In this document: positions 7,364 to 53,970 of the stretch, one piece after another
Numbering within the stretch: position 1 is the stretch's first letter
How the letters are laid out: each line of letters begins with the position of its first letter
Origin: Myxococcota bacterium
GTDB taxonomy: Bacteria; Myxococcota_A; Polyangia; Polyangiales; Sandaracinaceae
Assembly: GCA_036149055.1 (NCBI GenBank)
Contig: JAYZQJ010000088.1
Location: 1 to 64,000 of the forward strand
Direction of reading: 5' to 3'
DNA: 64,000 bases
Notes under the pieces: model-generated
Database searches by the model: none
Seen by the model: only the letters and a program-made list of their open reading frames with translations
What the model was told of the DNA's origin: nothing
Position numbers and translations under genes: made by a program

Positions 7364-7677
7364 GGGGACGGAGTTTCCTTGTTGCCCAGCCGACTGAGCC
7401 TCGGCCCGCGTATCACTGATTCGGGCTACGGGGACGGAGTTTCCTTGTTGCCCAGCCAGCGGAGTCAGGGCCCGATCGAAGGCTCAGACTCGACGAGTCG
7501 GTTCTGTGGCTGCCTCCCACCGCAGATACACCGGTTGTCCTTTGCTGCCAGGTCTCTCCGCGACGTGCGTGCGGCGCAAAGCTCTCTAGGCAACAAGGAA
7601 ACTCCGTCCCAGAGTCCGCATTTCGGGGCGGGCGGCCGGGCGAAGGTTCCTCTCGGCAACAAGGAAACTCCGTCCCC
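7364..7677. repeat. Four-copy REP/MITE-like element: two direct copies then two inverted copies of GGGACGGAGTTTCCTTGTTGCC
   Basis: Copies at 7364-7391 and 7430-7457 (identical 28-mer GGGGACGGAGTTTCCTTGTTGCCCAGCC); reverse-complement copies at 7589-7610 and 7655-7677; lies between convergent genes. Confidence 0.9.
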
Positions 7678-50800: not shown

Positions 50801-51604
50801 CACGCGATCGTCTACGTGCCGCAGCAGGACGGCATCGACGAGGCGCGCTTCATGGACCCGACGACCGACCTGCTCGACGCCGGCAACCTGCGCGCCGACG
50901 ATCAGGGCGCGACCTCGCTCGTGCTCGACCCCGACAGCGGGGCGTGGGAGTTCGTCGACATCCCCTATCAGCCGGCGGAGATGACCTACTTCTCGTGCGA
51001 CGTCGACGTGAGCGTCACCGGCGCCGAGCAGGCCACCGCCGACGCGCGCTGCCGGGGGCGTGGATCGATGGCCTCGGCGTTCCGGCGCATCATGCGCAAC
51101 GAGGAGAGCGCCTCGCAGCTCCGCCAGAACCTGGCGCAGGGCATCTTCCAGGGCTCGGCGGTCACCGGGCACTCGGTCGCGCACGCCGAGGACGCCGACG
51201 CCCCGCTCGAGCTGAACCTCGAGCTCGACGCGAGCGCGGCGCTCCAGCCCCAGGGCGAGGAGCGGCGGCTGCGGGTGCCGTCTCCCTTCAACCTCGGGCG
51301 GGTGACCCGGCTGGAGCGGCGGCGGCTCCCGCTCCGGCTCGGGGTGCCGGACTCGGCGCGCTGGGAGGTCACCTTCGAGGCTCCGTCGGGCGGCCGGGTC
51401 GTGCGCACGCCGGAGGACTTCACCATCGAGCACGCCTGCTTCCGGGTCTCCCGGACCACGGTCACCCGAGGTCGGCGCGCCACCGTGACCATCGACTATC
51501 GCCGGACCTGCGCCGAGGTCTCGGCCGAGGACTACCCGGAGCTCCGCCGCCTCGCGCAGCGGGCGCAGAACCAGCTGCAGGCCGACGTCGTCATCAGCCC
51601 TTGA
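47831..51604 (+). CDS. Large lipoprotein: TPR repeats + DUF3857 + transglutaminase-like domain
   Basis: Lipobox LLGC; TPRs; GLEVGSRV; IRYQ...RGYGDCKDKAVL...FNHAIVY...MDPT (Cys-His-Asp). Confidence 0.88.
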   Translation: MRTRRLLAFASFALLLGCGGHPGVFDLAPAARVSLGAAGGDAEIDALAARFYGETLDPAAMRAELEAALERHPESATLHEMAAHLAELRADDRAAWLHWLSAASDTSTPFTAVYLQRALGRDLTGGEERASIALLREMSASHPRPAARVDAARRLIGLLEQHGRLEEAERLGAELGYLRAWRMVGAFDNDQGRGFQATEPPETEALDLDASFRGLRSEVRWREVTQYDRAGVAQLGAHLSPNRWAVAYLVTHVESPSAREAQLRLTTSSATKVWVNGRLVVAQDRLANAATDNFVLPITLRAGPNRIFVKSAQDGSGAWIFGARLTDREGRALPGLRADAGARAVELDAPGDDSGNPSPLEEALAAVEPPLRRELLRHHDAVRNGYEGDALDQARALLELAPRHPVVLLTAATTHWTNEELGQAMDLLNEGAERFEGSAGFAYHRGAFYRERDRYDRAIEDLERARQLEPGARLAAMELSLTFGDRRWREHQCRVLDEVVARWPDSGWAVRSQAWCLGQRGYVEASRRAYERADALTPGHIWTLRRRAELARAEGDHERALTFARRARRTRPWDMGVLVFVADELRLAGRRAEARALLGAGLEIDPDWSSPHHRLGLMAFEDGDTAEALARWAAALERDPDNGPLADRVDFLRGDEDDPDRQLMPSAQDIEAALAQATEMEIDPGAHSVLVLDDEVTTVQQDGSSLRRITQVHLAVTTDGRDDLILNRVPGNARILEAYSVGPEGERQEASSIRGGTIRFRGLEVGSRVVLQYVFHAQPPPFLPNHFVSSWLFQGPQRQLGVARWVVQVPAGRELATHVQGPVEHRVERGETHDTHLFTAAGVPPLQPEPAMPPMRDVLAMVTLSTLTDWQQYVDWERALLSEVFESNRQLRQLAQRLTEGAETPAAKLDAIYRYVAQEIRYQQDYEDTIAGVRPHSCPVVLERGYGDCKDKAVLMILLGREVGLDIRFAILRTTNAGAVRREVPNQQFNHAIVYVPQQDGIDEARFMDPTTDLLDAGNLRADDQGATSLVLDPDSGAWEFVDIPYQPAEMTYFSCDVDVSVTGAEQATADARCRGRGSMASAFRRIMRNEESASQLRQNLAQGIFQGSAVTGHSVAHAEDADAPLELNLELDASAALQPQGEERRLRVPSPFNLGRVTRLERRRLPLRLGVPDSARWEVTFEAPSGGRVVRTPEDFTIEHACFRVSRTTVTRGRRATVTIDYRRTCAEVSAEDYPELRRLAQRAQNQLQADVVISP

Positions 51605-52421
51605 GCACCTGACACGACGGGCAGAAGTAGACGTGCCGGCCGCCGATGTCCTCGCGGCGGATCGGCGCGTCGCAGCGGCGGCAGGGCTTGCCCGCGCGCC
51701 CGTAGACGTAGAAGCGCTTCTCGCTCCGCCGCGCGCCGCCCTGGCGGAGCCGCGCCGCCGTCCGGGCGGGGAGGGTGACGCCGCGCTGCGCGTAGGCGCG
51801 CCGGCAGATCTCCACCGTGGAGTCGGCCAGCTTGCGGATCTCCTTCGCCTCGAGCGCCTTCGGTCGCTCCCTCGGGTGCACGCGGGCGTGGAACAGGATC
51901 TCCGCGCGCAGGTAGTTGCCGAGCCCCGCGAGGAAGCCCTGGTCGAGATAGAGGGCGGCGAGCTGGCGGCCGTCGAAGCGGTCGTCGCGCAGCCGCTCGC
52001 GCACCACCGACGGATCGAGCGCGCCGGCCGACACGTCCGGCCCGAGCTTCGCGAGGTACGGGTGCGCGCGCAGATCGTCCGACTCGAGCACGGCGATCTC
52101 GCTCGCGGAGTACAGCCACGCGCTCTTGTCGGCGGTGTGCACCGCGAAGCGCAGCGAGCGGCGGGTGCGCGGCGTGGTCCCCCGCGCCGTGACGTACCAG
52201 CGGCCGTAGAGCTGGTTGTGGGTGTAGACGGTCAGCCCGACGTCGAAGCGCGTGAGCAGCGCCTTGCCGCGGTTGTCGACCGCCTCGACGCGACGGCCGC
52301 TCAGCTCGTCCGCGTAGTCGCGCAGGTGGTCGAAGGCGAAGAACACCTCTTCGGCGATCTCGCCGGCGATGGCCTTCGCGAGCCGGTCGGCGGCGCGGCG
52401 GATCTCCGGTCCTTCGGGCAC
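51594..52421 (-). CDS. nei: Endonuclease VIII (Fpg/Nei DNA glycosylase/AP lyase)
   Basis: MPEGPEI, RGKALL, THNQLYG, AGLGNYLRAEI, C4 zinc finger CRRC...CPSCQ. Confidence 0.95.
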   Translation of the reverse strand: MPEGPEIRRAADRLAKAIAGEIAEEVFFAFDHLRDYADELSGRRVEAVDNRGKALLTRFDVGLTVYTHNQLYGRWYVTARGTTPRTRRSLRFAVHTADKSAWLYSASEIAVLESDDLRAHPYLAKLGPDVSAGALDPSVVRERLRDDRFDGRQLAALYLDQGFLAGLGNYLRAEILFHARVHPRERPKALEAKEIRKLADSTVEICRRAYAQRGVTLPARTAARLRQGGARRSEKRFYVYGRAGKPCRRCDAPIRREDIGGRHVYFCPSCQVLKG

Positions 52422-52447
52422 GCACCAGGCCTAGGGCGAAGTAGGCG

Positions 52448-52557
52448 GCTCGACCACGAGGAGCGACGGGTGAGTCGAGCTTTGGATGTGTGGAGTTGGA
52501 TGAGGTGCGTTGGAGTGGGATCGGAGGGGGAGGGTCGCTCCTCGTGATCGAGCACGA
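52448..52557 (-). ncRNA. Candidate sigma54-dependent structured RNA (20-bp closing stem, 66-nt C-rich loop) or nei 5' leader
   Basis: Inverted repeat 52448-52467 / 52534-52553. Its one imperfection is a G-U pair on the minus strand. It starts at the predicted +1 of a GG-N10-GC promoter. Confidence 0.55.
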
Positions 52558-52567
52558 GCTAGGTGTT

Positions 52568-52583
52568 TGCAGCCGGTGTGCCA
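52568..52583 (-). promoter_or_regulatory. Candidate sigma54 (-24/-12) promoter
   Basis: Minus strand TGGCACACCGGCTGCA = TGGCAC core, GG-N10-GC; predicted +1 near 52557. Confidence 0.65.
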
Positions 52584-52704
52584 CCCGCTCCGCGCGACGA
52601 CCTGCGCCCGAAACGGCGTGACCGAAGGACACGCTGGTGACAGGTCGGCGACCCCACCCCTCGAGGGCGACAAAATGGCAGCCGAACTGAACGCCCCGGG
52701 GCGG

Positions 52705-53970
52705 CTACGAGCCCAGCGGCCGCGGCGGGCGGTAGTGGACGCGCTCGGCGTCGACGGAGACCAGCTCGCGCTCCGGCCAGCGCAGCGCGGTGAGCTTGCC
52801 GCCGAACACGCAGCCCGTGTCGAGGCAGATCGTGTTGTTCACCCAACGCGTCTCCGCGACCGGGGTGTGGCCGTAGACGACCGCCGCGCGCCCCTCGTAG
52901 TCCTGCGCCCAGTCCAGCCGGATGGGGAGGCCGTCTTCGTCGGTCTCGCCGGTGGTGTCGCCGTAGAGGCAGAACGCGCGCACCTTGCCGCCGACCCGCC
53001 CGTGCATCGACTCCTTCAGCCCGGCGTGGGCCACGACCAGCTCGCCGCCGTCGAGCACGTAGTGCGGCCGGAGCGCCTCGATGAACGCGCGCGCCCGCTC
53101 CCGGAACGCCTCCGGCTCGGCCTCGAGCGAGGCGATCGACGTCCCGGCGCCGTGCGTCGGCTTGATCTTCTTGCCCTCGAGCCAGCGGAGCAGCTTGGCC
53201 TCGTGGTTGCCCTGCACGCAGATCGCCGCGCCCGCGTCCACCATGTCCATCGCCAGCCGCAGACACCCGGCCACGTCGGGGCCGCGGTCCACGAGGTCGC
53301 CGACGAAGACGACGCGGCGGCCCTCGGGGTGGCGGTGCACGCCGTCGGCGCCCGGCGCGTAGCCGAGCCGGTCGAGCAGCGTGTGGAGCTCCGACGCGCA
53401 GCCGTGCACGTCGCCGACGAGATCGAACGGGCCGCGCTCCTCGCGCCGCTCGGGCGCCAGCTTCTCGCGCCGCACCTCGACGCGCTCGATGTCCTGCTCG
53501 GCCAGCACGTGGACCTCCCGGAAGCCCTCGCTCCGCAGGCTCTCGAGCGATCGACGGAACTGCGCGTGGTGCTCGCGCACGACGACCTCGGTGAACGGTC
53601 GATCCCCGCGGGCGGCGTGGCGCGCCAGGAGGGTCTCCAGCGACACGTCGAGGGCCACGACCACGATCGGGAGGTGCTGCCGCTTGGCGATCTTGCGCAG
53701 GGGCTGGCGGGCCCGGGGCTCGAGGCTCGTGGCGTCGATGACGGTCATGCGCGCGTGGGCGAGCCGCATGTCGGCGAGGCGGTGCACCATCTCGAAGGCG
53801 TCCGCGCTCACCCCCTGATCGTTCTCGTCGTCGCAGATGAGCGCCCGCATCCGATCCGACGAGACCACCTCGGTCGGCGCGAAGTGCTTCGCGGCGAAGC
53901 TCGACTTGCCGCTGCCCGACGCGCCGAGCAGCACCACGAGCGACGGCTCCGGGAGGATCAGGCTCGGCAT
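52705..53970 (-). CDS. Polynucleotide kinase-phosphatase-like protein (Pnkp kinase + phosphatase, no ligase domain)
   Basis: [49 protein letters not shown]; ends at 421 aa. Confidence 0.9.

Follow-up and report, generated by a model that had tools for sequence, protein, structure and literature searches.

Between a Pnkp-like gene and nei, the minus strand of a 64,000-nt stretch of a Sandaracinaceae genome (the whole of which we call the window) carries a long hairpin behind a sigma54-like motif. Is this hairpin a gene, and if so, what might it do? A sequence-only reading had proposed a novel sigma54-driven small RNA, acting as a multivalent anti-Shine-Dalgarno (anti-SD) RNA or a protein sponge, or else a structured leader of nei. 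As a whole, that observation was confirmed. The element is almost certainly a stand-alone and conserved gene for a non-coding small RNA, encoded on the minus strand.

Structure and conservation of the RNA

The predicted RNA spans 52448..52557 of the window (minus strand; about 110 nt plus an undefined 3' tail, without an intrinsic terminator). Its terminal stem, formed by a 5' arm at 52534..52553 and a 3' arm at 52448..52467, has the 20 bp and the single U-G that were first described. The stem encloses a C/A-rich and G-poor loop of 66 nt (52468..52533; C36 A16 U10 G4) with CAUCC and CUCC motifs, in which the seven UCC reported earlier were recovered. The GTG of nei lies at 52421, 26 nt beyond the stem. 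The remark that no U-tract terminator is visible also held, as no terminator-like site was detected in 51400-52900 and the U-run following the stem reaches at most 1-2 in 10/10 homologs; no sigma70-like site was detected in the same interval. The fold yielded a z-score of -4.38, and none of 200 shuffles was equally stable. An internal GCUCGAC had been suggested to pair alternatively with the 3' arm. The motif is present at 52480-52474 and was found in only 3/10 homologs, and forcing the alternative pairing costs about 15.5 kcal/mol (-26.2 vs -41.7), which argues against such a switch.

We then considered whether the stem covaries, as had been recommended. In a ten-sequence alignment, 98.8% of 169 stem cells were paired, versus 36-45% in slid-control alignments. 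Two-sided changes were found in 5/18 pairs (18 cells, a level reached by 0/500 shuffles), and these shuffle counts are not probabilities, since related genomes were compared in an alignment fitted to the model. The other side of this conservation is that 10/18 stem pairs are invariant across homologs. Stem length ranges from 14 to 21 bp and loop length from 49 to 72 nt. The minus strand, for which one U-G pair had been cited initially, is further indicated by nine G-U cells on the C-rich strand that would be A-C on the opposite strand. Across the ten homologs, the distance from one invariant stem core to the other falls into all three classes modulo 3, which implies that there is no conserved reading frame and that the RNA is non-coding. 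Two coding candidates, a plus-strand peptide and a 366-aa minus-strand ORF running across the element, were rejected on the ground that their reading frame is not conserved.

Phylogenetic distribution

Homologs were identified by blastn over 41 genomes, which returned two, by a search behind Pnkp-like genes, which returned two more, and then by a covariance model comprising promoter and RNA; five of the ten homologs built this model and the other five are independent finds. The element was found in 10/32 genomes of the family Sandaracinaceae, with one copy each (counts over 32 include the unpublished G023 as one row, and no positive claim depends on it). The ten carriers, which are kin, scored 47.9-140 bits and the next best match 26.4 bits. 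In a tree built from 28 orthologous activator proteins, one clade (100/99) has eleven rows, and the carriers account for ten of them. The element was not found in the eleventh row, G011 (93% complete), and no match below E 0.08 was obtained for G011, G012, G018, G047 and G013.

The sequence-only reading had noted that many genomic copies without the promoter would point to a REP or MITE. The 9.9-Mb genome that holds the window (G000) contains a single copy, with the next blastn match at E 0.05, and the element is not of this kind. No paralog was found in G000 by blastn, by the covariance model or by an architecture scan; two unrelated look-alikes without the stem sequence came up. Outside the family, 151 genomes of the order gave three extra matches of 28-31 bits, none homologous on inspection. 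A pattern scan of 43/64 parts of GTDB yielded at least 119 loci, two of them true and both labelled Sandaracinaceae, as are the closest named homologs of the activator (the two loci were not added to the genome count), and a metagenome pattern scan yielded 11 loci, two of them true and near-identical to known copies. These results indicate that the RNA family is restricted to one clade of Sandaracinaceae.

Several other elements were observed during these searches. At L085:1500-1600 (genome G205), one hairpin with a U-tail and a poly-C loop stands behind a sigma54 motif and represents a different small-RNA family. An AT-rich dispersed element with 40-nt direct repeats occupies at least three intergenic places (G000:C195:1120-1330, C194:7620-7830 and C109:16740-16990) and possibly corresponds to the ends of mobile elements. 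A short palindromic repeat is present in several intergenic regions (L002 at ~1570-1590; C51, C161 and C197 of G000; L210) and sits between boxes and promoter in G001; the metagenome contig L210 folds back on itself at this repeat, probably through an assembly artefact.

Predicted promoter and paired enhancer boxes

The sigma54-like motif claimed on the minus strand is present, and we predict a -24/-12 promoter at 52568..52583 with +1 near 52557. It carries two mismatches to TGGCACG-N4-TTGC(T/A), the consensus given in PMC7910581. TGGCAY was found in 10/10 homologs, 35-38 nt ahead of the invariant CACG of the stem, and the -12 element reads GC in 7/10 homologs and GA in 3/10. Further upstream, we detected two palindromic enhancer boxes that were absent from the earlier reading. 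Both are predicted sites for a bacterial enhancer-binding protein (bEBP) with the consensus YGMC-RNNNY-GKCR, the distal one at 52667..52681 and the proximal one at 52637..52651, 30 nt from it. The two boxes are present in 10/10 RNA promoters at a spacing of 30-31 nt. The distal box lies about 97 nt before the promoter in nine homologs and 107 nt in one, so that box positions are near -97 and -67 in nine of the ten.

A probable link to type II secretion

Using a matrix derived from the RNA promoters only, we found a box pair, 40-41 nt apart, together with a sigma54 motif before gspC in 28/28 genomes (30 loci minus G023 and G009, gene at contig edge) and in 0/28 coding controls. The boxes were also searched across G000 with a matrix built without G000 and G001: the pair occurs at 8/1,747 sigma54-like motifs, versus 0-2 for 40 permuted matrices. 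Of these eight sites, four lie before ORFs without a Pfam family; the others belong to the RNA, to the gspC-D-E-F operon, to a GspG-like pseudopilin and to a second gspD secretin. The boxes thus connect the RNA with the type II secretion regulon and not with that of Pxr, and the RNA is very likely co-regulated with gsp.

The gspC sites are located at G000:C158:24427-24575 (L228, ~7427-7575) and in L280-L308, with a sigma54 motif of the AGGCAC type. The second gspD of G000 (C6) has its own box pair. In G005 (L223:3469-6290), a second gspD secretin and the RNA are encoded divergently, and a third box lies in the region separating them. Box pairs also accompany sigma54 motifs at G000:C7:78557+, C9:86754-, C123:12759+, C9:818+ and C68:4721+, before Pfam-less ORFs with hydrophobic N-termini; the C68 site is weaker and precedes a 25-codon ORF.

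Which protein might bind the boxes? An NtrC-type activator gene stands directly before gspC in G000. Among the 26 genomes having both, this activator is encoded within 10 kb of gspC in 14 and on another contig in 12. The combination of activator, box pair and sigma54 motif recurs in 2/4 distant orthologous loci, both from Anaeromyxobacteraceae; there the boxes come after the activator ortholog, and one of the two loci has a GspC-like match. In Myxococcus xanthus, nla4 is MXAN_2516 (PMC11980068) and gspD is MXAN2514 (PMC3222651). The locus numbers give the same activator-gsp order, from which we infer that the activator is Nla4-like. Because G000 encodes about 65 bEBP-like domains, the assignment was made by position alone; that the activator of the RNA is this positional counterpart of Myxococcus Nla4 is rather probable. 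M. xanthus depends on Nla4 for growth and for the accumulation of (p)ppGpp (PMC7910581, PMC11980068). Our literature search, whose scope excluded most subscription papers, returned no published Nla4 binding site among the matches listed.

Neighboring genes

The gene upstream (52705..53970, minus strand) is Pnkp-like, with kinase and phosphatase (AAA_33 and Metallophos) and without the ligase domain; it matches TIGR04075 over positions 3-425 of 851, under the cut-off. It appears to be a conserved neighbor, and the sequences indicate no functional link to the RNA. The gene downstream, nei (endonuclease VIII; 51594..52421, minus strand), matches PRK10445 over the cut-off and is possibly co-transcribed, as a downstream passenger in G000 only.

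That the hairpin is a cis-acting leader of nei, as the earlier reading allowed, or that it serves the Pnkp-like gene as a 3' element or terminator, would fit the 26 nt between stem and nei, the RNA-library contigs that bridge loop and nei, and the position of the Pnkp-like gene directly upstream of the RNA in 5/10 neighborhoods. Yet nei follows the RNA in only 1/10 neighborhoods (G000) and the downstream genes are convergent in most others, five genomes have other genes between the RNA and Pnkp, and in one genome the RNA faces away from Pnkp. This reading is largely refuted, and we regard it as extremely unlikely. More generally, the region of Ser/Thr kinase, Pnkp-like and transglutaminase-TPR genes around the RNA is loosely kept, and which neighbors occur, and in which orientation, differs between genomes. 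The rho gene was found in 0/32 family genomes, while 8/14 control genomes gave matches, which implies that the loop is not a rut site or a Rho decoy.

The family thus appears to be without Rho across these 32 genomes. The short Pnkp (kinase and phosphatase, without ligase) is found in some genomes and the long form in many relatives (L007-L032), and in L031 and L032 a separate kinase-only ORF was judged by eye to lie ahead of a Hen1-like start.

RNA-library contigs

We examined five (X1-X4 and X7) of the seven RNA runs that cover part of the region, all of which are assembled contigs, strandless and with ends unmapped. In three runs of one study, contigs cover the loop and nei together, which is consistent with read-through in this species. 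Runs X2-X4 show depth in 26-27 of 30 bins over 19 kb, so no selective expression is shown and DNA carry-over is possible. The bin 52638-52754 has no depth in X1-X4 among the pieces listed, and such holes prove nothing. Contigs of two studies end at 52546 and 52547, at a place where a DNA contig (L215) continues, which weakly suggests an RNA end some 10 nt into the transcript from the predicted +1.

Only six records of run X7 fit the 19 kb. One of them (record 27, depth 4.8) is a 104-nt contig over 52470..52547 that maps to 52518-52543 and then to 52470-52547, with the same 30 nt at both ends. By coordinate arithmetic 104 = 74+30, as for a cyclic unitig of 31-mers, and the stretch could thus form a 74-nt cycle. 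Given the 4-nt microhomology at the joint, a circular RNA is no more likely than template switching or a tandem duplication.

Loop composition and target predictions

The composition of the loops over the ten homologs is C54 A23 U15 G8%, and the predicted unpaired probability averages 0.90 here and ranges from 0.66 to 1.0 across homologs. The seven UCC had been presented as the hallmark of the loop. A role for them as the functional unit is not supported: the UCC count varies from 2 to 8 across homologs, and the recurrent motif is CAUCC. Loop-motif statistics were computed on nine loops, after dropping G001 as near-identical to G000, and the motifs were picked after data inspection. CAUCC occurs in 9/9 loops, with 20 copies versus 2.6 expected by base shuffles. 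Relative to dinucleotide shuffles, UCC, AUCC, CGCA and ACGCA stay enriched, and CAUCC is not among the top 5-mers. The complements of CAUCC and CUCC are GGAUG and GGAG, and CAU-N3-9-CUCC, the reverse complement of GGAG-spacer-AUG, was found in 7/9 loops versus 2.9 expected (p 0.003, dinucleotide shuffles). With the two parts exchanged, CUCC-N-CAU is somewhat raised too (5/9 loops, p 0.08). Motifs recur in variable number and position, although no aligned seed is shared across loops.

We searched for targets as the earlier reading had advised, and its expectation of SD-region targets found no support. The 7,482 predicted start regions of G000 pair only 0.3-0.7 kcal/mol better than coding controls, and shuffled loops do likewise (loop advantage -0.33 vs -0.20 +/- 0.62 for shuffled loops over 600 genes); this whole-genome scan concerns one genome, and its gene starts are uncertain as they come from a heuristic caller (7,851 genes). 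The 390 8-mer matches to targets fall within the shuffled range of 141-608. Six candidate genes were followed over 36 orthologous start regions, none of which was consistently strong; no gsp gene ranked better than the 7th percentile as a target, and no preference for exported proteins was observed (1.18 vs 1.08 +/- 0.11). A search for a G-rich partner sRNA returned only low-complexity G tracts. Since these target tests were negative, an anti-SD action rests on precedent: Pxr pairs near SDs in the Hfq-less M. xanthus (10.1101/2025.09.11.675593) and 6C acts through C-rich loops with no chaperones (PMC6486639), and NfeR1 (PMC10746234) and FlmE (PMC11187230) offer further precedents.

Comparison with known RNAs

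The Rfam search that had been proposed gave no match at E<=10 for the element, and none at E<=1 for the nine homolog loci. We compared the RNA with published systems. Pxr (RF01812, PxrR/Nla19), a sigma54/bEBP-driven C-rich myxobacterial sRNA (PMC5684412, PMC5568312, PMC11928866), is the natural comparison: it is likewise intergenic, about 110 nt long, placed behind a sigma54 promoter with an upstream enhancer, endowed with a C-rich loop and found in an Hfq-less host (PMC5684412). However, Pxr has three stem-loops and a U-tail (as in the Pxr-like loci L205-L207), whereas the present RNA has one long helix, a 49-72-nt loop and no U-tail. Pxr also sits behind its activator gene, whereas no bEBP was found among the called neighbors here. 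RF01812 had 0 matches in G000 and revealed Pxr-like loci in 2/5 other genomes, under the gathering score; a search of 151 phylum genomes gave no match, with controls silent as well. Upstream of the Pxr-like loci our box matrix scored 2.4-9.0, versus 10.4-19.6 at true sites, which indicates that the box differs from that of Pxr. Two of these loci, L205 and L207 (G286:C322:1433-1801), are tandem Pxr-like genes that score below the gathering threshold of Rfam; both have a sigma54 motif and TTKCA-N4-TGMAA-like boxes of their own.

The cuckoo, alpha-r14 and NfeR1 RNAs resemble the present RNA in their repeated and redundant anti-SD-like motifs in unpaired regions (PMC10746234). In cuckoo RNAs, CCUCCUCCC recurs unchanged in hairpins that are separate and differ in their stems, whereas the RNA described here keeps its stem sequence and varies in its loop; the CCUCCUCCC 9-mer was found in 1/10 homologs, overlapping the stem, and there is a single loop rather than several hairpins. 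The actinobacterial 6C RNA shares a high-GC host and C-rich loops proposed to pair with many mRNAs chaperone-free (PMC6486639), but its loops are small C-runs, in contrast with one large CAUCC-patterned loop, sigma54/bEBP control and no Rfam match here. CJnc230/FlmE of Campylobacter is RpoN-dependent, linked to an envelope machine, processed by RNase III and equipped with a single-stranded anti-SD (PMC11187230). It is cut from the flgE mRNA, with 12 nt of single strand between two hairpins, whereas the loop of the present RNA is enclosed and its predicted promoter is its own. DucS of Bacillus altitudinis is a bacterial ncRNA whose circular form was first seen as permuted reads (PMC10504365); its circles were validated by RNase R and Northern, in contrast with the one low-depth contig with microhomology that we observed.

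On the predicted transcribed strand our RNA is C-rich and the GGA motifs lie on the other strand, contrary to CsrB/RsmZ. The defining features of the Pxr, cuckoo and CsrB-type families were not found, nor was any Rfam match. The RNA would fit the general features of trans-acting sRNAs, namely its own predicted promoter, an intergenic position, a non-coding sequence and a conserved structure. Within the literature searched (most subscription papers outside scope), no description of this RNA or of a Sandaracinaceae sRNA, and no myxobacterial sRNA tied to type II secretion, was found among the matches listed.

Discussion

We propose that transcription would start at about 52557 from the sigma54 promoter and that the bEBP encoded beside gspC would bind the boxes, so that the RNA would be switched on together with the secretion genes, probably by the Nla4-like activator. 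The long stem may shield both RNA ends in place of a terminator, and RNase III, which is present, could also open it. The most likely role of the C-rich loop would be translational repression through pairing with G-rich ribosome-binding and start regions, and its repeated CAUCC/CUCC motifs may allow pairing with several targets independently of Hfq; hfq was not found in G000. Judging from the motifs and from precedent, we give base pairing of the loop with ribosome-binding and start regions about an even chance. The full account, in which a gsp-co-regulated RNA is a base-pairing repressor, is our best explanation and stands on the same balanced footing.

The main rival keeps the same gene and regulation and makes the loop a multivalent decoy of a protein that binds single-stranded RNA by reading CAUCC/YCAY-like motifs, in the manner of CsrB or CrcZ. 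It draws on the fact that motif repeats vary in number and place without an aligned seed, as is more usual for protein sponges. The loop is predicted to stay unpaired, mRNA-target tests gave no signal, and G000 has two genes of the KhpA/B type, whose KH proteins (or another protein) could be the partner; KH proteins prefer YCAY. However, the motifs complement SD and AUG, and their order bias is what an anti-start element would show, so that we see the decoy as possible and clearly less likely than base pairing. A sponge on the plus strand is another matter. There the loop would present 2-8 GGA and 1-3 GGAUG to CsrA, whose gene is found in G000 and in 6/10 carriers. Promoter, boxes and G-U pairs nevertheless all indicate the minus strand, ANGGA (the CsrA motif) occurs 0-1 times per loop, and csrA was not found in 4/10 carriers (86-96% complete) and was found in 8/22 non-carriers; with csrA in 14/32 genomes, it does not clearly track the presence of the RNA. 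A CsrA sponge is thus highly improbable. Y RNAs of the Ro60 RNP come with a TROVE gene in the genome, usually adjacent, and no Ro60 (TROVE) match over the cut-off was obtained in G000 (96% complete).

A further alternative concerns the stem, which might be a processing signal, with a cut in the 5' arm and the loop freed, or ligated into a small circular RNA, as the active form. The stem core is invariant beyond the needs of pairing (10/18 pairs never vary), genes for RNase III and RtcB are present in G000, the X7 contig forms a 74-nt cycle, contigs of two studies halt at 52546 and 52547 where the DNA contig goes on, and DucS offers a precedent (PMC10504365). Against this, one contig of depth 4.8 with 26 letters on its short side and a 4-nt microhomology is explained equally well by a reverse-transcriptase template switch or a strain tandem duplication. 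The joint lacks the symmetry about the stem that RNase III cleavage and religation would give, and two contigs (X1 and X3) run from the loop across the entire 3' arm into nei. We judge this processing reading unlikely, and very unlikely the still more specific possibility in which an Nla4-type sigma54 regulon for type II secretion has this RNA as its non-coding arm, and the stem of the RNA is a processing scaffold releasing the loop as a covalently closed mini-circle. If true, the mini-circle would be a nuclease-proof and multivalent anti-ribosome-binding-site RNA or protein decoy, that is, a regulated bacterial circular sRNA.

Two sets of genes met in this context merit mention on their own. 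Three rtcB-like loci were seen in G000 (C41:18139, C157:27824 and C204:33-1046), one apparently in two pieces, and a bEBP-like domain adjoins the C157 copy. csrA lies in a flagellar cluster right after flgL and is, by eye, fused to a FliW-like domain (L038:1057-1656, G000:C132).

Returning to the gsp-co-regulated RNA, the shared box leads to the prediction that sigma54 and a bEBP directly control the gsp operon, both throughout the family and in Anaeromyxobacteraceae. The same box constitutes a testable candidate site for Nla4 which, if true, would be the first binding site for this activator. Few myxobacterial sRNAs have been characterized, and the build of this family is unusual in its one conserved helix, its one large motif-patterned loop, its lack of a terminator and a regulator distinct from that of Pxr, in hosts with no detected Rho and, for G000, also without Hfq. 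These results suggest that Sandaracinaceae contain an undescribed and clade-restricted sRNA family that is wired into the type II secretion regulon and is likely the RNA arm of a secretion switch.
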